Positions 582-14,214 of a DNA stretch of 34,836 nucleotides are shown one piece after another (the first letter of the stretch is position 1; each line of letters opens with the position of its first letter). The notes beneath the pieces are model-generated. The model did not search any database. It saw nothing but the letters and a program-made list of their open reading frames with translations, and was not told where the DNA came from. Made by a program: the position numbers and the translations under genes. This DNA is from a virus (lineage: Duplodnaviria > Heunggongvirae > Uroviricota > Caudoviricetes), in IMG/VR virus record IMGVR_UViG_2687453454_000001, positions 1 to 34,836 of that record; one strand, written 5' to 3'.

Positions 582-1589
582 CTATTTTGCCTCTTGGCGG
601 TTATCGAACGGGTTAAGTGCTACCGCAGCATCAAGGTGGTTTGGGGCAAAATGCGCATACCTCATTGTCATCATGATCGTGCTGTGCCCGAGAATTTGCT
701 GTAACACCAAAATATTCCCACCTCGCATCATGAAGTGACTCGCGAATGTATGACGTAGTACATGGGTACGCTGTCCTTTGGGCAGCTCTATACCTGCGCG
801 TGCGAGAGCTGCCTTAAAAGCCTCGTATGCGGGTGAGAAGAGGGCACCACGCTTTTTAGGGAGCATCGCCTGTAGTTGTTGTGAAATTGGCACTGTGCGG
901 TTCTTCTTGCTTTTGGTTTGCGTAAACGTCAGACGACCAGGAAGGATTTGAGATTGCTTTAAGTCTTGAGCCTCGCTCCATCGTGCACCGGTCGCCAGAC
1001 AAATCCGTACGATAATCCCTAAATCTTTATTTGCGGACTGGTCGCATGCTGCAAGCAATCGGTCAATTTCTTCCTCATACAGAAAAGCCAGCTCCTGATC
1101 ACCTTCTTTGAACTGCCTGATTCCAGACAGCGGGTTATCTCCTTCCCATTCCCCCAGCCGCTTCATTTCCGAGAATACTGCATGCAGATAAGACTGCTCG
1201 CGGTTTACTGTCGCTTCACTCAGCTTCTTCTTGCCTTTCTGATTCCATTCACCACTCAAACGCCGTTCCCGGTATACAGCGAAAGTGTTTTTATCAAAGT
1301 GAGAAGCCAATGGATCACCAAGACGTTCGCATATGGCCAGTAATTTCACCTTTCTTTCATCACCAGATGAGAGCGTTTTGCCATGCATCTCGTACCAGCG
1401 TTCAACGAATGCCGAAAGAGTCACAGCGCTGTCGTTTACCGGCTGGTTTGCAGCGTTATTCATTAAACGGCGCTCATGGGAGAGCGCTTCACCTTTGGTA
1501 GCAAATTGCTTACGTATGCGTTTCCCATCACGCCCGTAAGGGAAACACTGACAAAGCCATTTACCGGAGGGTAGTTTTCGGACGGTCAA
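582..1589 (-). CDS. int: P2-family tyrosine integrase
   Basis: 335-aa ORF with catalytic-type motifs ATGARWSEA, HVLRHTFASH and MRYAHF; close resemblance by eye to P2 Int; adjacent to a tRNA gene. Confidence 0.9.
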   Translation of the reverse strand: MTVRKLPSGKWLCQCFPYGRDGKRIRKQFATKGEALSHERRLMNNAANQPVNDSAVTLSAFVERWYEMHGKTLSSGDERKVKLLAICERLGDPLASHFDKNTFAVYRERRLSGEWNQKGKKKLSEATVNREQSYLHAVFSEMKRLGEWEGDNPLSGIRQFKEGDQELAFLYEEEIDRLLAACDQSANKDLGIIVRICLATGARWSEAQDLKQSQILPGRLTFTQTKSKKNRTVPISQQLQAMLPKKRGALFSPAYEAFKAALARAGIELPKGQRTHVLRHTFASHFMMRGGNILVLQQILGHSTIMMTMRYAHFAPNHLDAAVALNPFDNRQEAK

Positions 1590-2464
1590 TTACTCACCTC
1601 TGCATCATCATCAGATCCTGCATACGCGAGTGAAATGAACATTTCCGCAGCGTTATCAAGATGTGCATAGGTTGATGTAAATTCGATATCTCGACACCTA
1701 CAGACGAATGGGCGCGTTTGATTTTCTGGTTGGAAGGATAAACTTACAACTGGAGTTTTGCGTGGTTTACCATTTTTGAAAAAGTTACAGACATCCAAAC
1801 GATTGCAAAGGCCTGCATCATCTTGATAAGTAGCAACATGCCACCCCATACCATGAAGTGTATCGGCAAATGCTAAATGCACTTCTTCGATATTTTTATA
1901 TAAGCCAACGGAGTATTGTTTTTTCTTACTCTCATTACGTTTTCTTGGCAGGGATGGGAGCCTTGCTACACCAGGTATTTCAATTTTTTCCAAGCTGAAT
2001 GTTTTTACCGGGTGAGTCGGAGATGATAGGTCCGCTGCTCGCAGCGTAAAGTTATCAAGCAATGTCAGAGGAAGGATATCTCTTGCTGCTCCGGATCGTT
2101 CACCTCCGTGATAAATGATTGATAAATTATCTTTGGTATCAATTGACGACCAGATCAGGTCCAGAAGAGGGTGTTCATCATGGATTGTAAATGTTGGTGT
2201 ATTGCCCTTTTGACCTTCTATATTTTGCGCATCCGACAAGGGGGATAGGTTTAGAAATTGCTCGGTCGACAGCACCTCTGAACCTTGCTGAGATGCCTTT
2301 TTTATTTTGCTCGGACCAGCATTTTCACCGCAACAGAGATAGTTAAGATCCTTGGTGACATCACTTCTAACGACATATCCACGAGCTTTAGCAATTTCAA
2401 TAAGCTCATTTTTGTCTTTTTTCCCAAAACCTGTAAAACAAATAGTCCTCATATAAAACCCCAC
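1586..2464 (-). CDS. BRCT-domain protein with WYL-like middle domain and C-terminal extension (cargo gene; function unknown)
   Basis: N-terminus TICFTGFGKKDKNELIEIAKARGYVVRSDVTKDLNYLCCGENAGPSKIKKASQQG has the BRCT pattern; the middle LSIIYHGGERSGAARDILPLTLLDNFTLRAADL...KTFSLEKIEI resembles a WYL domain. Probable ATG start at 2452 (ORF track start at 2464 is GTG). Its stop overlaps the int start by 4 nt. Local GC is lower than the phage core. Confidence 0.7.
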   Translation of the reverse strand: MGFYMRTICFTGFGKKDKNELIEIAKARGYVVRSDVTKDLNYLCCGENAGPSKIKKASQQGSEVLSTEQFLNLSPLSDAQNIEGQKGNTPTFTIHDEHPLLDLIWSSIDTKDNLSIIYHGGERSGAARDILPLTLLDNFTLRAADLSSPTHPVKTFSLEKIEIPGVARLPSLPRKRNESKKKQYSVGLYKNIEEVHLAFADTLHGMGWHVATYQDDAGLCNRLDVCNFFKNGKPRKTPVVSLSFQPENQTRPFVCRCRDIEFTSTYAHLDNAAEMFISLAYAGSDDDAEVSN

Positions 2465-2468
2465 GAAG

Positions 2469-3098
2469 TCAGAAAAATAATGAACCTAACAGGAAACCAA
2501 TTAAGAAGATGACAATGAATTCTTTCGCGTGGGATCGCAGCAATGTAGTGACATCCAATGGAGAGTGATTCTCTCTCGGGGGAGAAGGCGGAATATCTTG
2601 TGTTTGCTGGTCCAGCCACGATAAACACATTTGAAGCTGGTTGCGTGTTAGGTCATTCAGTCGACCAGTTCCGAAGTTAACATGGCAATAACGAATCAGT
2701 TTCTGCCTCAATTCGCTGTCTTCACTATTTCGAAGGAGAAGGCTAACAAGTGCTTTACTTGCATCTTTATCCTTAGCGCGTTCGAGCATGGACTGCAAAA
2801 AGCTAACTGCAGTCTGATATTGGTTGACGGTCATTTCTTCGATACTCGAAACGCCAATCTCTGCATGCAGCTTTTGCCAGATCTCATATGCTTCATTGCC
2901 GTAGGAATCAGAAACAAGTGCTACTAGGGCATTAAGTTCTTTTCTCTGCGCCCTAACCAAAGGACGCTCATCGTGAGTATCTGAGGGAATCGCAATGTTG
3001 ATGGTGTGACGGCCATCAAATTTATCGATCTGAACGCGGTTTTCTGTGAAGTCGCGTCCAGCGGTGCGGTTTTGATCTCCAGAGGAATTCACTTCCAT
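2469..3098 (-). CDS. hypothetical protein with C-terminal transmembrane anchor (cargo gene)
   Basis: 209-aa ORF; C-terminus FIVIFLIGFLLGSLFF is a hydrophobic helix; GGGAAG RBS-like sequence about 5 nt upstream of the ATG; starts 13 bp after the repressor stop and ends 4 bp before the BRCT gene. Confidence 0.6.
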   Translation of the reverse strand: MEVNSSGDQNRTAGRDFTENRVQIDKFDGRHTINIAIPSDTHDERPLVRAQRKELNALVALVSDSYGNEAYEIWQKLHAEIGVSSIEEMTVNQYQTAVSFLQSMLERAKDKDASKALVSLLLRNSEDSELRQKLIRYCHVNFGTGRLNDLTRNQLQMCLSWLDQQTQDIPPSPPRENHSPLDVTTLLRSHAKEFIVIFLIGFLLGSLFF

Positions 3099-3111: not shown

Positions 3112-3501
3112 TTATTTTTTTTCGTTGTAATCCCTGCCAGCCACTCGGTTGCCATTTCCTGACACATTGACTGAGTTTGAGACGGAGTTGCCAGCCGTTA
3201 AGGCTGCAAATACAGCAGCTTTGATGGCTAATGGGGCGTTTCTGAAATGATTAATTAGATCATGCTCGTCCCGTGTTAGTGCAACACCACCAGATTCTTG
3301 CCCTGTCAAAATGAACTGGACGTTAGCCCCATTGAGGGCGAAGGAACGCAAAACATTGCCGCCGGGAACGGCAGCGCCTCGCTCATACTTCCCCCAAATT
3401 TCTCTGGATATACCGCAAAGTTCTGCAATGGAGGCTTGATTAAAGCCCAATCTTTTCCGTTCATTTTTCAATCTGATAGCGCATTGAGAATCAAAGTTCA
3501 T
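3112..3501 (-). CDS. prophage immunity repressor (HTH, XRE/CI-like)
   Basis: Helix-turn-helix signature RLKNERKRLGFNQASIAELCGISREIWGKYERG; divergent from the early operon as for P2 C / 186 cI. Start chosen at the ATG at 3501 because the upstream in-frame starts (3537, GTG 3555) overlap the promoter/operator; the maximal ORF is 3112..3555. Confidence 0.7.
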   Translation of the reverse strand: MNFDSQCAIRLKNERKRLGFNQASIAELCGISREIWGKYERGAAVPGGNVLRSFALNGANVQFILTGQESGGVALTRDEHDLINHFRNAPLAIKAAVFAALTAGNSVSNSVNVSGNGNRVAGRDYNEKK

Positions 3502-3511
3502 AAAACACCGT

Positions 3512-3540
3512 TTGACAATGAGAACTATTGTTCTCATACT
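3512..3540 (+). promoter_or_regulatory. candidate early (lytic) promoter with overlapping palindromic operator
   Basis: TTGACA at 3512-3517, 17-bp spacer, CATACT at 3535-3540; the spacer holds the palindrome ATGAGAAC-TATT-GTTCTCAT (3518-3537). Confidence 0.5.
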
Positions 3541-3578
3541 GTTTTCCACAGACACTTAGCAGATCACAATATACCACT

Positions 3579-4588: not shown

Positions 4589-4756
4589 ATGACAATTCAA
4601 AAAAATGACCGCGCTCACCTGCTTGGGTTGTTACGTATCAAATTAAACCTTATGAAGAAAGAAAAGCTTTCCACTAATGAAATTTACCGCAGCCTGGAAG
4701 ATTGGATCGGCAACAGAGAACAGGTAGCAGTAAACAAGGAGCGTAAAAATGGTTAA
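4589..4756 (+). CDS. small hypothetical protein (55 aa), not in the ORF track
   Basis: ATG at 4589 preceded by GAGG; uninterrupted frame to a TAA that overlaps the methylase start. Confidence 0.35.
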   Translation: MTIQKNDRAHLLGLLRIKLNLMKKEKLSTNEIYRSLEDWIGNREQVAVNKERKNG

Positions 4757-5711
4757 CTCCCCTCTTATTTGGGTGGGCGGCAAGTCTCGCGCTATGTCGC
4801 ATGTGCTTGATGCTTTGCCCCACGGTGAATGCCTGGTTGAGCCTTTCGTGGGAAGCGGTAGCGTCTTCCTGAACACTGATTACAAAACCTATGTTCTCTG
4901 CGATAGCAATGCAGCGCTGATTAATTTCTTTTCAATGGTTAAACGTAATACCGAGGAGCTTTTAACTGCTTCCGCAAAGATATTCGAAAAGGGTAATAAT
5001 GAGATTATATACTATGAATATCGCGACGAATTTAATGTAATCAATCGTGAGTTTAAATATGACCGCCGAAAATATAATGATGAAACGTTAGTTAGATATG
5101 CGGCGCTGTTCCTTTATTTAAACCGCCATTGCTATAACGGTGTATATCGCGTTAATTTGAAAAATGAATTCAACGTTCCTTTTGGTTTTCGTAAGAAGCC
5201 AATTTTCCCTGTGGCTGAGATTCAGCATTTTGCTAAAAGAGCGTGGGAAAAGGGGGCTATGTTCCTGCATGGTGATTTCAGAGCAACAATCCCGCTGGCG
5301 ATTGGTCATTCGGGCTCCGTGGTTTATTGCGATCCGCCATACCTGCCAGCTAGCGAAACTGCGAATTTTACGGCTTACGGCAAGCCATTTACCGATGCAG
5401 ATCACCGCACCTTGGTTGCGATGCTTTCACGCCTCTACAACAACGCAAAAATACCATCTGTCATATCTGGCAGTGACACACCAGAGACGCACCAAATTTA
5501 TTACCCGTTCACCCTAAAAGCTTTCGACGTTCGGCGCTCAGTGGGGGCCAAAACTCGCAACCTTGCTGGCGAGGTTATAGGTACTCTGTGTGTCTGCGAT
5601 TGCTGTGGGAGTGTGGGCGGTGGCTGTCCTGATTGTGGGGCGGTGATGGGCGATGCGACTTATTCAGAAATGGTCGCTTCTGGTGCTTTTGAAGATCAGG
5701 AGGTGTTCTGA
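4749..5711 (+). CDS. DNA N6-adenine methyltransferase (Dam family) with Cys-rich C-terminal tail
   Basis: N-terminal IWVGGKS, SAM-binding EPFVGSGSVFLN and catalytic YCDPPY motifs; C-terminal CVCDCCGSVGGGCPDCG cluster. Confidence 0.85.
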   Translation: MVNSPLIWVGGKSRAMSHVLDALPHGECLVEPFVGSGSVFLNTDYKTYVLCDSNAALINFFSMVKRNTEELLTASAKIFEKGNNEIIYYEYRDEFNVINREFKYDRRKYNDETLVRYAALFLYLNRHCYNGVYRVNLKNEFNVPFGFRKKPIFPVAEIQHFAKRAWEKGAMFLHGDFRATIPLAIGHSGSVVYCDPPYLPASETANFTAYGKPFTDADHRTLVAMLSRLYNNAKIPSVISGSDTPETHQIYYPFTLKAFDVRRSVGAKTRNLAGEVIGTLCVCDCCGSVGGGCPDCGAVMGDATYSEMVASGAFEDQEVF

Positions 5712-5893: not shown

Positions 5894-8335
5894 GTGACTC
5901 AGGCGCGTCGTGTTCACTCAATGACTACGGATAAACCGGGCAACTTTGACGAGTCTGCCCGGTACGCCTATCCGTGGAATGAACCAAAACAGGCCATTGC
6001 CGTTGATAAGACTCCTGCTGTTGATCTATATGAATTGGGTCAAGAGCAGGAGTTTTTCGCGTGGGTTGAAGATACTCTCAAGCCACTACCTACATTTATT
6101 CGCCGCCGCGTTTCATCCCGCATAAATGCCGTACACGCTGACAAAGGGCGTCATATTGCAAAGTTAACTCTTCTCAATATCGTGGCGCGTGACCTTCCAC
6201 ACGTGCGAGCAGTTACAGAGCAATATGCCGCGCCTGTTGGCAGTGACTGGATCATTTATTCCGAATTAAACCCACTTTTTCATACGTTTGATAACCTTCG
6301 CGAACTAACGCGCCGGTTCAATCAGTTGGCTGACTGCACGGACGAAGATATTGATTTACTTGCTCAGGATATCGCTATTTATGCCAATGCTGCCTTAGCT
6401 GAAGTGAGTGAAACCTGTGCTGTACTTAGCCCTGTAGAGTACAGCAAACGAATGCTGCTGGAAGGCTCAAGGCTGATTGCTTACTTCGGGCTAATCGCGC
6501 CCTGGGCTTCACGGCGCAAAATGCCACTTGATGAAATGGCTGCTTCAATTCGAAAAATTCTTGATGATCATTTTTGGTCACGCCTGCTGCGAAAGTACGC
6601 GCGCCGCTGGCGTGAACATCTGCATATTGCCTTTGGTGATGTGCGTCGCGATGTGTCCCCCTATTGCAGCAAAAATCACGTTAAACAGTGGGATGCGCGT
6701 CGCAAACGTAGCAGGGCAATCATGAGCCGCCTGGAACTTGAAGATCAGGTTACGGGTGAGCGCATGTCGTTGATAGAACAGATTGATAAAAGCGTATCGA
6801 ATCCTGAAAAGCGCCGCGTAGAACTTATGACGCGTATTGGTGGCTTTGAGAAGGTGGCAACGGAAAGCGGTTATGCCGGAAGTTTCTTCACGCTCACCGC
6901 CCCGTCTAAATATCATGCCTATACCGCGTTTGGACACCGCAACCACAAGTGGAACGGGGCAAGCCCTCGCCGATCACAGCGGTATCTCAATCAAATATGG
7001 CAACAGATTCGCGCTGAACTCGCACGCCGCGAAATTCCTGTATTCGGTCTTCGCGTTGCTGAATCCCATCATGACGGTACTCCGCACTGGCATGGCCTGC
7101 TGTTTACAGACCCAGAGCACACTGATGAGTTGAAAGAGGTCATGGAAGACTACGCAACGCGTGAGGATGCGGAAGAGTTAACTGGCAAGTCTGGTAAGCA
7201 GCCCCGCTTTGAACTTAAGCCGATTGATCCGGCTTTGGGTAGCGCTACGGGTTATGTCGTTAAATACATCTCAAAAAACATTGATGGTTACGCTCTGGAC
7301 GGCGAGAGCGATCATGAAAGTGGACGCCCTCTGAAGGAAACCGCTAAGCACGCAACAGCCTGGGCGTCATGCTGGGGGATACGCCAATTTCAGTTTTTAG
7401 GGGGAGCGCCGGTGTCAGTCTGGCGTGAACTTCGCCGCCTGAAAAATCAGGATTTAGCCGACAGGGTTAGTCCTGTTTTTGGTGAGCTGCACCGCGCGGC
7501 TCACGCAGGAGATTGGCAGGGTTACATCACCTTACAGGGTGGCCCTTTTGTTTCCCGTTCCAAGTTGGTGCTGCGCGCCTGGTATCAATACAAAAACGAG
7601 CCAAGCAGTTACGGCGAGTATCAGAAAGCTATCAAGGGTCTGGTTATGCCAGCATCCAGCATTCCGCCCGTAGAAACGCGCCTCCATTCTTATCGCATTG
7701 TGAAGATGAGGCCTAAATCTTCAGACCGTGTCGATCCGGGTTTTGACCTTAAGGGCGCGTCTGCGACCTCTTGGACTCGTGTCAATAACTGTACGGAGTA
7801 CAAAAAACACACAGTTTCACCGCCTGTCTATCCTCCAGATCTGACTGTGCCAGCTGGCGAAATACAGCCAGAGCAATTTGAAATCGGTCAGTTAAGCCGA
7901 GATCAGAGAAAACAGATTGAGGAAGACATCAGAAACCACAAATCAAATCAGCGTGTTTCACCTGCTGATCAGTTTGAGATGCTTGCATTAAGCATTACTG
8001 CCGGTGATTGCACCGATTATGACCGGGCTAGGGCTGAAAGCTATATGAAGGCAGCACATGCTCTTCGCCAGGAAGAAAGCGCGGTGAGTGAGGAGGTTGA
8101 ATCCCTGGCCAAGGAAATTATGGGATGGGCGAAGATGAGAAAAATTTCAATCAATCCGGTACAGGCGATGAAGCTGGCTCAGGGGGGAGAAGTAATGGCA
8201 CTTGATACGACATATCGGGCTAACCCGGTAACGGGTGAATTGATTGTGACCGGTGCAGATAAGCACTGGCGCAAGACGCTGGCACGACACAAGGCAGAGA
8301 CATTAGTTAACCGCTGGCTTCAGGCGGTTAAGTGA
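5894..8335 (+). CDS. A: P2 gpA-like rolling-circle replication initiator
   Basis: 813 aa; motifs HHDGTPHWHGLLF and GYVVKYISKNIDGYALDG match the P2 A family; GTG start at 5894 with AAGGTGAG RBS (alternative ATG at 5921). Confidence 0.9.
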   Translation: MTQARRVHSMTTDKPGNFDESARYAYPWNEPKQAIAVDKTPAVDLYELGQEQEFFAWVEDTLKPLPTFIRRRVSSRINAVHADKGRHIAKLTLLNIVARDLPHVRAVTEQYAAPVGSDWIIYSELNPLFHTFDNLRELTRRFNQLADCTDEDIDLLAQDIAIYANAALAEVSETCAVLSPVEYSKRMLLEGSRLIAYFGLIAPWASRRKMPLDEMAASIRKILDDHFWSRLLRKYARRWREHLHIAFGDVRRDVSPYCSKNHVKQWDARRKRSRAIMSRLELEDQVTGERMSLIEQIDKSVSNPEKRRVELMTRIGGFEKVATESGYAGSFFTLTAPSKYHAYTAFGHRNHKWNGASPRRSQRYLNQIWQQIRAELARREIPVFGLRVAESHHDGTPHWHGLLFTDPEHTDELKEVMEDYATREDAEELTGKSGKQPRFELKPIDPALGSATGYVVKYISKNIDGYALDGESDHESGRPLKETAKHATAWASCWGIRQFQFLGGAPVSVWRELRRLKNQDLADRVSPVFGELHRAAHAGDWQGYITLQGGPFVSRSKLVLRAWYQYKNEPSSYGEYQKAIKGLVMPASSIPPVETRLHSYRIVKMRPKSSDRVDPGFDLKGASATSWTRVNNCTEYKKHTVSPPVYPPDLTVPAGEIQPEQFEIGQLSRDQRKQIEEDIRNHKSNQRVSPADQFEMLALSITAGDCTDYDRARAESYMKAAHALRQEESAVSEEVESLAKEIMGWAKMRKISINPVQAMKLAQGGEVMALDTTYRANPVTGELIVTGADKHWRKTLARHKAETLVNRWLQAVK

Positions 8336-8450: not shown

Positions 8451-8828
8451 CTACTCGAGCGTTAGTTGCTCGGGACTGCATTTGTACAGTGTAGCTAGCC
8501 GTTCAAGGTTGTCTTTGCGAGGACGCTCAGACTTTTCGAACTCGGACACTGTAGATTGCTTAATTCCCAGCGCTTCAGCGACTTGTTTTTGCGTCAAGCC
8601 TCTGTAAACACGCCATGCAGCCTGCATGGTGCAACCCTTCTCAGAAAGAATGTTGATAACTTCGTTTGGGTATCGAACGTTATCAGATGTGCCGGTTTCG
8701 TTTTGAACAGGCTCGTATAACTCTGCGATATCACTATCACGGGTCAGTTTTTCGAACAGTTCAATCGGCACGACAGCAGAAATTCTTTTCCCTCTACTGT
8801 CTGTGATGAATTGAATGTTAGCCATCAC
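8451..8828 (-). CDS. HTH (XRE-type) protein, putative antitoxin
   Basis: 125 aa; C-terminal HTH LTQKQVAEALGIKQSTVSEFEKSER; lies downstream of the RelE/ParE-like gene on the same strand. Confidence 0.6.
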   Translation of the reverse strand: MMANIQFITDSRGKRISAVVPIELFEKLTRDSDIAELYEPVQNETGTSDNVRYPNEVINILSEKGCTMQAAWRVYRGLTQKQVAEALGIKQSTVSEFEKSERPRKDNLERLATLYKCSPEQLTLE

Positions 8829-9011: not shown

Positions 9012-9290
9012 TCAATATGTCGTGGACGTTCGGCGCAAGATGCGCTGAATCTCGATCACTACAGGGGCATTGTTGCTTAAGGCATACAACACTCTGTAAT
9101 TCCCAACCCTCAGTCGATACTTACCATCACTATCAGTGAGCTTTTTAACATCAAGCCCCTTCAGGTCAGGATATGACTGCATCGCGTTAACCTTCTCGCG
9201 AACAGCTTTTTGATCTTTTGATGGTAGCGAGCGTAAGTCCTTAACGGCCTTACCAGTCCATTGAATGTTTGTCGTCATGACGAACCTCAA
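9012..9290 (-). CDS. RelE/ParE-superfamily toxin-like protein
   Basis: 92 aa; GKYRLRVGNYRVLYALSNNAPVVIEIQRILRR matches the RelE/ParE core pattern. Confidence 0.65.
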   Translation of the reverse strand: MRFVMTTNIQWTGKAVKDLRSLPSKDQKAVREKVNAMQSYPDLKGLDVKKLTDSDGKYRLRVGNYRVLYALSNNAPVVIEIQRILRRTSTTY

Positions 9291-9332: not shown

Positions 9333-9404
9333 ACAATATAGGGGTTAACCCCTATATTGTCAAGAAAGCCCTATATTTCCATGCGCTGATATAGGCAATA
9401 TAGT
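9333..9404. promoter_or_regulatory. operator region with perfect 28-bp palindrome and repeated half-sites
   Basis: ACAATATAGGGGTTAACCCCTATATTGT at 9333-9360, plus CCCTATATTT and ATATAGGCAATATAG copies downstream; lies between the divergent toxin gene and the 128-aa gene. Confidence 0.55.
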
Positions 9405-9411
9405 TCGCGAA

Positions 9412-9798
9412 GTGAGTGATACGGTGAATTTTGATGGGCTTTCACGGCAGGAAAAGCGAGAACTGGCACAGCGGTTTAGTGACGTTGTTCGAAGCAAACT
9501 TAAAACACGTCCACCGGAACGAGAAGAAGGGGCTGGACTATCGGTGAAGGAGCTTATAACTAAAGAACTACTTGAGCTATGTGGGATTGATGCCTGTGTC
9601 GGGATGATAAAATCAATAGTACCGGGAACGCATATTGGCTATATCGATCTGATTTTTGAGATCGAAGATGGACGTCTAGCGTTCAAAATTTGCTCAGAAA
9701 CAAACTTCAATGTTGCTACTAAACAAAAGATGGCGAACATTTTAGATAGAGATAGAATACTAAAAAGGTTGAAGCAAGCTTTGTTTACAAATGGATAG
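9412..9798 (+). CDS. hypothetical protein (128 aa), first gene of the AT-rich cargo pair
   Basis: ORF with GTG start at 9412 (alternative GTG at 9424); GC falls along the gene; ends 20 bp before the 944-aa ORF. Confidence 0.5.
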   Translation: MSDTVNFDGLSRQEKRELAQRFSDVVRSKLKTRPPEREEGAGLSVKELITKELLELCGIDACVGMIKSIVPGTHIGYIDLIFEIEDGRLAFKICSETNFNVATKQKMANILDRDRILKRLKQALFTNG

Positions 9799-9818
9799 GG
9801 CAAAAAAGATGCCTCGTT

Positions 9819-12653
9819 ATGTGTGTCGTTATTTACCACAAATTGGGATTGGTTATGAGCATTATGAAAATAGAAGTAAAAGGTAAGCCAAAAGGAGCAG
9901 TCATTTATATCAATGTCAAGAAAACCATAGCTTTTTATTTGACGATTTCAATTTTAATTCTGCTTGGGATGTATTTATCACGTTTTTGTTCTGTGCCATA
10001 TAAATATTTATTGATTAGCCCATCTTTTTATAATAATCCATATCTTAATTGGATAACTGGTGTTTGGGGTAGTTTTTTAGGCATGCACGGTACTATAGCT
10101 GCTTTGTCTATAACTTTTATGGGAATGTTTGTCGATCAGGTTTCAAAGACATCTGAACATGGTTTTGAGCATTTATCGAAAGTCTTATTGCTAAGAGAGT
10201 ATGATTTTTTAGGATTTAGTGTTGAATCAGTGTGTAGTCTATTATGTGGCGTTTTTTTACTTCTCATTGGTAGTGGCTTGATTGGATATTTAATTTCATC
10301 TTTACTTTCTTTATTTTTTATCACTAAATATGGCATTATGTATTATAGACTTTACCATTTAACAGAAGAACCCGGAGTTATTAATGGGATTTTATTAGAT
10401 TCTATCAGGACAACAGGCATCAAGTATAATGAGATTAACAAACAACGACAGATTCTTGCTAACGAGTTTTCTCAAGTAATATCGGGAGGTGATTACTACA
10501 GTGATGATCAAAGTGCCTTCTATTGGAATGATGATGCGATAACGATAAATATTTTTCCTGATGACACTGATGTGGTTATTTCTGGATACAATCCAAACAT
10601 ATTTAATCAGCTTTCGGTAAAGATTAAAGAATTTAATTTGAACCATCCGCCTATCTTGCTTTTCTCTTTATCATTCTTATCACCCATATCAAATTCCTCA
10701 ATGAAAATCATTCCATCTAATAAATCTGATTTGACAGAGGAGCATATTTCATCAATTGAATCAATTTTGAGGAAAGGGCTGATATTTAGTTCTGTTCCTT
10801 ATGTTTTTAATGAGTTTAAACAATTTGAAGAAGCTCTTGTAGTAAACGTCAGAAACAGTTTGCTGAATGGTGATGAGTGGACGTTAGATTTTGGAGTGCG
10901 TATTTTTTATGAACTAACTTCAAATGATAACTATATCTACACTCTAAAGAATATAGATTTGTCAATTACGTCCTCTAATACTAAAGATGTGGTGAAAACA
11001 TCTTTGTTTGCAAGTTATTTTGAAAAAATGATACGTGAGGCTTATAATCAGAGTAATCTTGAAAAGGCTGCTAATATAATGCGGTCGTTAATAGACCTAG
11101 CGAGATATATTTATGGTAAGAATAACTTTGTCGATTTTTATAAAAGGATTTTTAGACAATTTGACCATAGGGTAAAGTATCGTGCAGAAGAATCAAATTA
11201 TGTTTTTTTAGATCTGTATACATCCACTGTGCTGCACAACCTAGTATATAAGAATTATGCGGCTTTCAAAGTTGATACTGAGTTTGTGACGCGTAGATTG
11301 CAGTATCTAGATCTTAGCAATAAAACAGAACATGATTCATTGAATGAAATGCAACGTAAGATATTACGTTTATTATTTGAAGTTATATCCTTGCTAATTA
11401 TGCGAATAGAGCATGTGAAGGCGAAGGGTGAAGAACGCAAAGAGGAACTCAACGAATTAATCATTTCATTGAAGTCTTGGGTAAATGCTAAATTTTTGCA
11501 GGAATTATATTACAAAAAAGAGCTTTACGATGTGTTGTTTACTATACCTCAAGAGTTTTCGGTATTCGGTGCAGAAACTAAAATTCGAGAAATACCAGAT
11601 GGTGAAGCGACATGGAGATCAGTTTCGAACGATACTTATAAGATGATCGCATTCGTTCTTACGCAAAGCTCTTTCAACAATAATCAATTGAATCTTTTAT
11701 TTGTTAGAGATGCATTTCAATTTAAAAATGCTACGTCAATATTAACCCGCGAATTAAGTTCTATAATAGATTACATAGAGGGTGAATCTTTCTCTAAATT
11801 ATTTAAATTGATAACTGAAAAGGATTTGGTCGAAGATAGTAATAAAAAAACAGTAGTTGAGAAGTTGGAGTCGATTATTTCCTCGCAAAATTCTTTAGTG
11901 CTGCGCAGTGTGATCGAATCAGAATTAGAGCCTTCATTGGTTGATAAATATAGTAACGAGATCATACATTCTGTGGAGAAGCTATTTGAGCTAATTTTGC
12001 CATTGGAAGCAATTCCTTTAGAGATTGGATTCAATGGGATCGAATCACATCTATTAATTAATAAAAGAGAGGTGCTCCCCCCAATTGATGGTGTTTCTTA
12101 TGGAATGAACATTCATAACCATAGTCAGTGGTTAATATATGAATGGATCAGGAGTGTATTAAACAGTATTGATATAAATGCTGTGGAGGTTATCACTATT
12201 GATGACCCACAAGATTTGCCAACCGAAAAATTAGTTACCATAGAATATCAAGTTGAAGATAGAGTTAACACTTTTAGGCATTCTCGAGGTTTAAAAATTA
12301 ATGATAAGGAAGGCCATTTGAATTTGAATGGTTCTGGCTTGTATTATTTGGATTTATTAAATAACTTTAATTTAAAAAAATCAAAAGAAATACTAACGGT
12401 TAACATAGAAAAGATATTTGAAGGAAATATTGAAATGGTTAAAGGACGATATGATTTTGATAATGATAATCCTTATCTATATTCAATTTTAAATGTCGTT
12501 TTTAACATTGTTGCCATACCAAATATGATATGTAAACTTTATTTTCTATCGGAAGATAAATGTCTGTTAATCAATCAAAAACAAGAAAGAGAGATGGAGC
12601 AATTAATTAAAGGGAACAGAACGGAGAATCCTGATAACAGTAATGTATCTTAA
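9819..12653 (+). CDS. large AT-rich membrane-anchored protein of unknown function (944 aa)
   Basis: Uninterrupted 2.8-kb ORF in very AT-rich DNA; N-terminal hydrophobic helices (TIAFYLTISILILLGMYL, WITGVWGSFLGMHGTIAALSITFMGMFV, VCSLLCGVFLLLIGSGLIGYLISSLLSLFFI) then about 750 aa of soluble sequence; alternative starts at 9855 and 9864. Confidence 0.7.
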   Translation: MCVVIYHKLGLVMSIMKIEVKGKPKGAVIYINVKKTIAFYLTISILILLGMYLSRFCSVPYKYLLISPSFYNNPYLNWITGVWGSFLGMHGTIAALSITFMGMFVDQVSKTSEHGFEHLSKVLLLREYDFLGFSVESVCSLLCGVFLLLIGSGLIGYLISSLLSLFFITKYGIMYYRLYHLTEEPGVINGILLDSIRTTGIKYNEINKQRQILANEFSQVISGGDYYSDDQSAFYWNDDAITINIFPDDTDVVISGYNPNIFNQLSVKIKEFNLNHPPILLFSLSFLSPISNSSMKIIPSNKSDLTEEHISSIESILRKGLIFSSVPYVFNEFKQFEEALVVNVRNSLLNGDEWTLDFGVRIFYELTSNDNYIYTLKNIDLSITSSNTKDVVKTSLFASYFEKMIREAYNQSNLEKAANIMRSLIDLARYIYGKNNFVDFYKRIFRQFDHRVKYRAEESNYVFLDLYTSTVLHNLVYKNYAAFKVDTEFVTRRLQYLDLSNKTEHDSLNEMQRKILRLLFEVISLLIMRIEHVKAKGEERKEELNELIISLKSWVNAKFLQELYYKKELYDVLFTIPQEFSVFGAETKIREIPDGEATWRSVSNDTYKMIAFVLTQSSFNNNQLNLLFVRDAFQFKNATSILTRELSSIIDYIEGESFSKLFKLITEKDLVEDSNKKTVVEKLESIISSQNSLVLRSVIESELEPSLVDKYSNEIIHSVEKLFELILPLEAIPLEIGFNGIESHLLINKREVLPPIDGVSYGMNIHNHSQWLIYEWIRSVLNSIDINAVEVITIDDPQDLPTEKLVTIEYQVEDRVNTFRHSRGLKINDKEGHLNLNGSGLYYLDLLNNFNLKKSKEILTVNIEKIFEGNIEMVKGRYDFDNDNPYLYSILNVVFNIVAIPNMICKLYFLSEDKCLLINQKQEREMEQLIKGNRTENPDNSNVS

Positions 12654-13161: not shown

Positions 13162-14214
13162 TCACTTCGTGGGTTCAAGCAATGCGTAAGGGTTGAAGCG
13201 AATCACCTCCTCACCCAGCCAGTCGTTAACATGCTTCATGGCTTCCATGTAGGGTGTCAGCTCGTTGACGGCGAACACGCGGGCCGCTTTCTCAATATCA
13301 CCGAATGAACCGTTCCCTTCCGGAATGGCGCCCATCAGTTGCGGCGGTACCCGGTGCGCTGCCAGCATGTCATCGCGGGTGGAAGACTTCACCCCCACAA
13401 ACTCATCCTTAGCCGATATCTGGCTGAATGGCAGTATTTGCACGGAGTCTTTGCCGCCGTTAGGTGCGTGCAGAAGGATGTTCTTAAACGCACCGCCGCG
13501 CCGGGTATCCGTCAGCGTCTTTTTGAGCTTATCAAGGCTCTCCTGGTCGGCCATCGCGCTGTTAACGTAGACGATGCAGCCAGCGTGTGAGCCGTTGTCG
13601 TAGTAAAGCTTTCTGAACTTGTCAGCAGAATGGGCCAGATTTGCAGACAGCAGGCCAGCGAAATACTCAGGCATGCCGTATATTTCCTGGTGAATATCCG
13701 GGCTGAGAACGTGGCATACCGAGCCCGTTGAAAACATGTGATCCTGTAGCCCGGCCTGAATAAACCAGTAAGTGTCCAGGTCAGAACCACGGCGTGTGTA
13801 TTTCGCCAGCGAGTGACGAAAGCCAAAGGAACCACCAAGCCGGTTTTTTCGCATCTCAAGATAACCATTCCCGAAGACAAACCAGTCCAGCGCGAAGGCG
13901 GAGAACACCTGGCGGGAAAGAAGTTTGTGCGGGACAAAGCATCCGGCAAGGACGTTGCGCTTGAAATAAAGCGCCGACTGGTGCCAGCTCGCATAGCCAA
14001 ACTGACGGGCGAGGCCATACCAGTCAATGGGGGTTTCGTAGTATCGCCCGTTGTCTGCGCAATACATGTTATCAAGCAGGTCGCTGGCACCACTCACCGG
14101 CCATGGACCGTCGAAGGTGAATGAGTTCAGCTCCGGTGACGCTTTCAGTGAGGCGGCGAGATCTGCCTGCTCCCTGGCATACTTCCTGCCGCGTGTGGGT
14201 CTTTGTTTGCTCAA
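13162..14214 (-). CDS. Q: portal protein (gpQ-like)
   Basis: 350 aa; position next to cos and the large terminase, and P2 Q-like sequence. Confidence 0.88.
   Translation of the reverse strand: MSKQRPTRGRKYAREQADLAASLKASPELNSFTFDGPWPVSGASDLLDNMYCADNGRYYETPIDWYGLARQFGYASWHQSALYFKRNVLAGCFVPHKLLSRQVFSAFALDWFVFGNGYLEMRKNRLGGSFGFRHSLAKYTRRGSDLDTYWFIQAGLQDHMFSTGSVCHVLSPDIHQEIYGMPEYFAGLLSANLAHSADKFRKLYYDNGSHAGCIVYVNSAMADQESLDKLKKTLTDTRRGGAFKNILLHAPNGGKDSVQILPFSQISAKDEFVGVKSSTRDDMLAAHRVPPQLMGAIPEGNGSFGDIEKAARVFAVNELTPYMEAMKHVNDWLGEEVIRFNPYALLEPTK

Follow-up and report, generated by a model that had tools for sequence, protein, structure and literature searches.

What does a large gene of no recognisable family do in an anti-phage hotspot of a P2-like prophage? 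The question is raised by a 34,836-nucleotide stretch of viral DNA (IMG/VR record IMGVR_UViG_2687453454_000001, positions 1 to 34,836; hereafter the window), which is a P2-like prophage of Escherichia coli integrated beside tRNA-Leu. An uninterrupted open reading frame (ORF) spans 9819..12653 on its + strand, 944 codons counted from the first ATG. By RefSeq annotation the prophage genes run in the order integrase, early genes, gpA, cargo region, portal gpQ, terminase, scaffold and capsid, and the ORF lies between gpA (replication endonuclease) and gpQ (portal). This interval corresponds to the old/tin locus of P2, which has been shown to be a hotspot for anti-phage systems (Rousset et al. 2022, PMC9122126). 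We found a real, constrained and horizontally mobile single gene that recurs in the P2 defence hotspot; its protein family falls outside any named system tested, and its soluble part has no match to a known fold. The gene is a good candidate for phage defence by a new single-gene system. Quite possibly, if short of probably, its product is a self-contained single-protein system for competition between viruses, in which a cytoplasmic sensor would be joined to a membrane-permeabilising module, a reading drawn from genomic context and predicted anatomy.

The gene, its family and its location

The original prediction, made from the letters of the window, had described a 944-amino-acid protein. The frame is indeed real and open, but it appears over-extended by 12 codons: the true start is most likely at 9855 rather than 9819, giving a 932-amino-acid product. 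In upstream DNA aligned with the Enterobacter soli and Klebsiella pneumoniae homologues, the AAATTGGGAT..GTTATGAG context around the 9855 ATG is conserved, whereas the 9819 ATG runs straight into a TGA in E. soli and is missing in K. pneumoniae, which makes the upstream start doubtful. RefSeq/PGAP also starts the protein at 9855 (932 amino acids, WP_139246995.1), and most homologues measure 926-932 amino acids; residue numbers below follow the 932-residue product unless the 944-residue numbering is stated. The strong AT bias remarked on in the original prediction is evident, with a GC content of 0.32-0.33 between 10 and 12 kb in the window and of 0.55-0.57 in the phage structural genes nearby. 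At ~32% GC, stops are expected at roughly 7-8% of codons, and by our own calculation a stop-free run this long has a probability of ~1e-32, so that an open frame of ~930 codons is no chance event.

A search of 5.8 billion proteins returned 38 homologue clusters at 31-100% identity, nearly all of 911-959 amino acids and without a Pfam domain in any cluster, from Enterobacter, Klebsiella, Cronobacter, Rahnella, Serratia and E. coli. The family is rare: an exhaustive hidden Markov model search of 1.84 billion representatives yielded only 46 matches, of which ~20 span the full length, another word-indexed search, run with a broad profile, recovered the same proteins, and a scan of genome contigs added a single locus, in Pantoea allii. 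No match was found among 72,556 plasmids by tblastn, nor by megablast in complete E. coli genomes for the variants at two of the homologue loci (L004 and L011). Pairwise ratios of nonsynonymous to synonymous substitution (dN/dS) are ~0.10, with dS above 1, pointing to purifying selection on the large gene. The five homologous genes with readable DNA have a GC content of 0.30-0.32 irrespective of host, which argues for horizontal cargo.

Two PHROG families, both without an assigned function, match the protein: PHROG 10073 over residues 155-925 (E 7.8e-150) and PHROG 18005 over residues 50-389 only (E 1.1e-73). The partial span of the latter, along with some short family fragments in the databases, is what a chance ORF or decaying pseudogene might leave behind. 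We rejected this explanation, whose probability is negligible, on the 932-codon open frame at 32% GC, the more than 30 full-length homologue clusters from six genera, the low dN/dS at high dS and a confident AlphaFold2 (AF2) model (pLDDT 85.8). The homologues, which the original prediction had allowed might prove disrupted, are full length and under constraint.

Six further homologues (31-80% identity) occupy the gpA-portal slot, in Serratia, Klebsiella (two), Enterobacter, Rahnella and E. coli. The Serratia, K. michiganensis, K. pneumoniae and E. soli homologues are each the sole gene between gpA and portal, and those of E. coli and Rahnella have other small genes beside them in the slot. A 37%-identical E. 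coli variant, sited between gpA and ogr/portal, occurs in 19 further complete genomes. Elsewhere, the homologue P0037 resides in an AlpA-type island, and in Pantoea allii the homologue is chromosomal and flanked by a 94-amino-acid integrase fragment and an insertion sequence transposase, with a HEC-01A/AriA-like ATPase ~3 kb upstream, inserted between cysS and folD (locus L009, 3974-5086 and 7149-12191). P0077 and P0079 are much more distant homologues of equal length, and their alignment to the family spans 670 columns, from the second transmembrane (TM) helix to a C-terminal motif (hhalign probability 97.4%, E 1.2e-11). P0077, from a metagenome-assembled genome of a Ca. Thiodiazotropha symbiont (L013:1785-14407), follows immediately on a complete type I restriction-modification (R-M) operon, with two HsdM, HsdS and HsdR, and has a P4-type integrase beside it. 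The hotspot site, the recurrence in the same slot and the R-M and integrase neighbourhood of this remote homologue strengthen the reading as defence.

The family has already been catalogued, unnamed, as an anonymous P2-hotspot cassette, and in that sense is not wholly new to the literature. Cassette 27 in Table S5B of Rousset et al. 2022 is listed as one protein without Pfam domain, with the note '3 TM' and 131 E. coli loci, and with no comment (PMC9122126). It contains the signature peptide of the family, and the window protein is 37% identical to the same variant, from E. coli 2011C-4251, collinear over 878 residues and with an identical HGTIAALSITFMGMFV block. Both are single genes in the same gpA-gpQ slot, so that the window gene belongs to the cargo of this hotspot by location as well as by homology to a listed cassette. 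It differs in coming from a diverged branch of Enterobacter/Klebsiella type, which entered the E. coli prophage together with a foreign piece of gpA. The family motif was absent from the constructs in Rousset Table S2A, from the Vassallo 2022 supplements and from the supplements of the Moura de Sousa 2026 P2/P4 preprint, later screens not being searchable by sequence.

A predicted four-helix membrane module

To describe the architecture of the protein, we used an AF2 model built on a 24-sequence alignment (pTM 0.68). The N-terminal TM helices of the original prediction were recovered, and number four: Kyte-Doolittle hydropathy peaks at ~35-57, 78-105, 130-150 and 150-170 (944-residue numbering), AF2 places helices at residues 13-44, 66-97, 118-138 and 142-171, and four hydrophobic segments are kept in 21 family members and in the two remote homologues, where TM2 is more hydrophobic. 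Beyond them lies ~760 amino acids of soluble protein, in agreement with the large soluble region first proposed. Four TM helices put the N- and C-termini on one side of the membrane; both termini are most likely cytoplasmic in this model, as argued by a lysine-rich N-terminus (six K/R) and the absence of a signal peptide.

The membrane module, rather than the soluble part, is where the family is most constrained. Sum-of-pairs identity reaches 0.69-0.81 in TM2 and 0.47-0.67 in TM3/TM4, compared with 0.26-0.47 overall, making TM2 the most conserved segment and TM2-TM4 the most conserved region of the protein. The dN/dS is 0.04 in TM2-TM4 against 0.09-0.14 in the soluble domains, which evolve ~2-4 times faster. 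The alpha/beta domain at residues 215-315 is among the most variable parts, and the N-terminus, the C-terminal tail and TM1 are equally low in conservation or lower. Thirteen residues of the membrane module are invariant down to 17% identity, namely W66, W71, H78, G79, T80, A82, A83, F88, L129, G139, G141, Y145 and Y159, as are R517, E531 and Y558 of the solenoid and K737, G828 and Y830 of the C-terminal domain. The conserved positions of TM4 (145, 148, 152, 155, 159, 162/163 and 166/167) form a stripe along one helix face, which suggests a packing interface, and a predicted periplasmic loop, PYKYLLISPSFYN, is extremely conserved, like TM2-TM4 themselves. The conservation peak over TM2-TM4, together with its invariant polar and small residues, argues that the module is more than an anchor. 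Such unequal rates are what is usually seen when a conserved effector is joined to a variable sensor.

We propose that the protein would combine a four-helix inner-membrane module, a stalk helix and a cytoplasmic part of ~760 residues made up of alpha/beta, alpha-solenoid and beta-rich domains. The cytoplasmic part would recognise a component of an infecting phage, and the stalk would pass the resulting change to the strongly constrained TM2-TM4 bundle. This bundle, probably oligomeric, would then make the membrane leaky, leaving an infected cell that no longer supports phage growth. The logic would be that of abortive infection (Abi), as for RexB-type or CBASS/Pycsar membrane effectors. PADLOC, Pfam, NCBIfam and motif scans revealed no enzymatic motif or domain that could serve as an alternative effector.

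The same conservation of TM2-TM4 and of the PYKYLLISPSFYN loop would also fit docking on a conserved host partner. On this basis the protein might exclude phages at entry or injection without cell death, an unlikely alternative in which the TM module would associate with a host membrane component used for phage genome entry while the cytoplasmic part binds or blocks ejected proteins or DNA, following the logic of superinfection exclusion or of SNIPE minus its nuclease. A prophage-encoded, predicted membrane-embedded protein in which no catalytic domain was found suits such a role, and SNIPE sets a precedent for a single membrane-tethered protein acting at the injection site (bioRxiv 10.1101/2025.11.03.685801). 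Classical superinfection exclusion proteins are small, however, and a 760-residue cytoplasmic region has no obvious use in plain blocking; moreover, PADLOC, Pfam and a family scan of 21 members gave no nuclease, DUF4041 or DNA-binding domain, and nothing ties the protein to any host transporter.

An enzymatic role within the membrane was also considered. Intramembrane proteases are marked by GxSG with a histidine, by EExxxR, FxxxH and HxxxN, or by HExxH. The middle residue of G139-x-G141 is S, C, G or T across the alignment, and the TM helices show no conserved rhomboid, intramembrane protease or channel-filter pattern. We rejected an intramembrane protease of the rhomboid, CPBP/Abi or S2P type, since neither EExxxR nor HExxH is present and Pfam gives no match.

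The soluble region and known systems

Pattern scans of the translation found no Walker A, HxD, HKD or PD-(D/E)xK pattern, in keeping with the lack of a Walker A and of a clear nuclease motif noted at the outset. The accompanying statement that there was no reverse-transcriptase YxDD stands in substance but not to the letter: a YSDD string does occur at residue 227 (944-residue numbering), in a variable stretch that is not conserved, and was rejected as a reverse-transcriptase motif for that reason. PADLOC-DB v2.0.0, which covers Abi, Rex, Kiwa, Zorya, PD-T4/T7/lambda and PDC candidates, gave no matches at E<=1 for the window protein or for 10 distant members, and none for the E. coli variant or for the remote homologue P0077. 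Pfam-A gave nothing at its curated cutoff and NCBIfam no match, for the window protein and for distant members alike, with no family common to 21 members, and sequence-profile searches of the PDB returned nothing informative. The view that the protein matches no family that could be named has thus been upheld.

RefSeq gives the identical protein two names, 'ligand-binding sensor domain-containing protein' in some genomes and 'hypothetical protein' elsewhere. PSII_BNR, the best Pfam match, occurs in 1 of 21 members; its score is 14 bits where the cutoff is 27, and it covers residues 550-611, which AF2 models as helices and loops. We rejected the 'ligand-binding sensor' label, as no beta-propeller or periplasmic ligand-binding domain was found and PSII_BNR is the best that the searches offer.

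By Foldseek against the PDB, a comparison proposed with the original prediction, the full AF2 model gave nothing informative; the solenoid matches only generic helical-repeat folds. Among the weak matches of the full model are the capsid proteins of phi29 and of capsid-forming phage-inducible chromosomal islands (cf-PICI). With the predicted model as query, the C-terminal domain gives a weak but consistent signal for the fold of HK97-type capsid proteins and encapsulins, a lead rather than a finding. It is established that other systems (Lit/Gol, CapRel, PifA) are triggered by capsid proteins. The C-terminal domain might be a diverged HK97-type fold that either assembles together with the major capsid protein of an invader or is triggered by it, so that head assembly is poisoned or capsid oligomerisation clusters and opens the TM modules, an explanation we consider improbable. 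The same match list holds ribosomal S6, GyrI-like and SOUL generic alpha+beta folds, the query is itself a predicted model, and profiles of the C-terminal domain show no similarity to any PDB chain, capsid sequences included, or to the P2 capsid protein of the window (probability 0.3%, hhalign). More speculatively still, the domain could be a captured, diverged HK97-type fold serving as sensor or decoy, which engages the assembling capsid protein of an invading phage, with clustering opening the four-helix module, for which the prospects are slim.

Compared with named systems, the protein has partial likenesses. Membrane effectors of abortive infection, such as RexB of lambda RexAB, those of CBASS/Pycsar and retron- or TIR-associated TM proteins, are likewise small helical modules in prophage or defence loci, and RexB has the same count of four helices. 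These effectors are thought to collapse membrane integrity (PMC9122126). The window protein, in contrast, has no PADLOC match, fuses a putative sensor and effector in one 932-residue chain, and its locus lacks a separate sensor or signalling enzyme. SNIPE is similarly a single membrane-anchored protein with its bulk in the cytoplasm, acting at the inner membrane (2025 preprint from the Laub laboratory, bioRxiv 10.1101/2025.11.03.685801), yet it has one TM helix, DUF4041 and a GIY-YIG nuclease, whereas the window protein has four TM helices and matches neither domain. Kiwa, according to PMC11785009, pairs the 4-TM protein KwaA with a large cytoplasmic partner, KwaB (DUF4868), and responds to infection at the membrane. 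It comprises two genes, however, and the window protein shows no KwaA, KwaB or DUF4868 match and a different cytoplasmic fold.

Several observations weigh against a single-protein defence system that permeabilises the membrane. Phobius, as reported in the Rousset table, predicts 3 TM only, which would place the large domain in the periplasm. H78 is not retained in the remote homologues, and the conservation of the TM helices would fit equally well if the module docked on a conserved membrane protein of the host or sensed the membrane. The family is present in just 27 of 5426 complete E. coli genomes, tblastn found no match in 50,697 sequenced phage records, and the systems that Rousset et al. 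2022 cloned do not include the family (PMC9122126). Residence in the hotspot is itself only suggestive, as 89 of 427 cargo groups there match DefenseFinder. The likeness to Abi proteins in outline, with which the original prediction had ended, therefore fares unevenly: its defence-like part is strengthened by the context of the locus, while an effector role and abortive infection are not supported.

The hotspot also carries cytolethal distending toxin and partition genes (PMC9122126), which speaks against defence in the same way and bears on a further alternative. Rather unlikely, in our estimate, the gene could be cargo of another kind, serving lysogenic conversion or maintenance (for example as an envelope sensor, after the PGAP name) or aiding the prophage's own cycle. 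The 'sensor' name in some RefSeq records and the absence of a defence domain detectable with PADLOC would be in line with such a role. That name has no reproducible domain support, though, no output domain (kinase, cyclase or DNA-binding) was found, and one remote member has a type I R-M system as its neighbour.

Neighbouring genes and significance

The gpA-gpQ interval of the window holds a RelE/ParE-type toxin with a helix-turn-helix (HTH) partner, a 128-amino-acid ORF and the large gene, and similarity to the P2 backbone picks up again at ~12784 (Table 1). A 5-kb segment of the region is found unchanged, at 100% identity, in 8 of the 5426 complete E. coli genomes. The 128-amino-acid ORF shares 69.5% amino acid identity over its full length with GpA residues 658-785 of an Enterobacter soli prophage, and nucleotide identity to that prophage is 78% from 9405 on into the large gene. 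The 3' end of a foreign gpA and the large gene were thus recombined in as one block behind the resident gpA; the relic marks the recombination junction, a visible scar of cassette swapping. We rejected a two-gene system with the 128-amino-acid ORF, which is the C-terminus of a foreign GpA and is absent upstream of other homologues; it is also unrelated to the ORFs upstream of the homologues at L004 and L008. A small hairpin, GGGCAAAAAAGATGCCT, lies at 9798-9814 (+), directly past the stop codon of the gpA relic and ahead of the large gene; a candidate terminator or regulatory element, it is shared by the loci of E. soli and K. pneumoniae, where it is conserved.

In one sub-branch of the family (P0034/P0037), a conserved upstream ORF of ~182 amino acids carries a CxxC...CxxC zinc-ribbon-like motif (L004:7365-7916, L011:3410-3955). 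Its two copies are 69% identical and differ in context (P2 hotspot and AlpA island), and neither Pfam nor PADLOC gives a match. As a family-wide partner it was rejected, being confined to that sub-branch and absent from the window and its branch.

Within the same hotspot, the toxin (9012-9290, -) belongs to the RelE/ParE family (PF05016, E 1.7e-7; PHROG 1213) and is followed by the XRE-type HTH protein (8451-8828, -), forming a toxin-first pair resembling a toxin-antitoxin module, with divergent promoter-like sites nearby at 9335-9363 (-) and 9376-9404 (+). On the integrase side, the genes at 1586-2464 (-), 2469-3098 (-) and 3112-3555 (-) encode a BRCT-domain protein, a 209-amino-acid protein annotated as membrane and an HTH protein, and may form a second cargo locus of the prophage; the BRCT-domain protein has a weak PADLOC match to PDC-S48 through its BRCT domain (E 3.5e-6). 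In strain 45E, the annotation treats the prophage's Dam-type DNA adenine methylase as a truncated pseudogene (L001:5450-6199); at the corresponding place the window has an ORF of 320 amino acids (4749-5711, +).

Table 1. Features of the large gene and of its borders in the hotspot; positions refer to the window and residues to the 932-residue product.
Feature	Residues	Position	Strand	Basis
Resident gpA replication endonuclease, left hotspot border		5894..8335	+	RefSeq annotation
128-amino-acid ORF, relic of a foreign gpA 3' end, no partner gene		9412..9798	+	Match to E. soli GpA
12-codon N-terminal extension of the 944-codon ORF, probably untranslated		9819..9854	+	9819 ATG not conserved
Gene for the 932-residue membrane protein (stop codon included)		9855..12653	+	ORF, conserved start, PGAP start, homologues, dN/dS
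Predicted four-helix TM module	13-171	9891..10367	+	Hydropathy, AF2
TM2, with signature W66..W71..L-G-I-H78-G-T-I-A-A-L-S-I-T-F-M		10050..10145	+	Invariant columns, identity, dN/dS
Predicted amphipathic helix in the TM2-TM3 loop	105-115			AF2
Predicted long stalk helix leaving the membrane	174-211	10374..10487	+	AF2 secondary structure
Predicted small alpha/beta domain	215-315	10497..10799	+	AF2; conservation 0.16-0.35
Predicted all-alpha solenoid (~400 amino acids), invariant R517, E531, Y558	316-715	10800..11999	+	AF2, invariant columns
Predicted beta-rich C-terminal domain, invariant K737, near-invariant R738, D745, G812, G828, Y830	716-900	12000..12554	+	
K-R-E-V-x5-D motif, persisting in remote homologues as KR..L.P.D	737-745	12063..12089	+	Alignments; P0077 and P0079 sequences; hhalign
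Predicted terminal helix	900-920			AF2
Portal protein gpQ, right hotspot border		13162..14214	-	RefSeq annotation

No recognised function is attached to about 80% of the cargo families of the P2 old/tin hotspot, and this cassette family is among the more abundant unnamed ones, with the 131 E. coli loci of the Rousset survey. The single gene is compact, at 2.8 kb, and its product has a confident structural model, lacks any known domain and bears a conserved membrane motif with sharp limits, which makes cloning and mutation easy; the family is a good and cheap target for validation rather than a demonstrated novelty. That a sulfur-oxidising symbiont has a remote homologue, next to its type I R-M system, suggests an architecture that predates the Enterobacterales and extends beyond them. 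If protective, the protein would represent a new family that fuses sensor and membrane effector in one chain, and would offer a simple model of how cytoplasmic recognition is relayed to a membrane pore.

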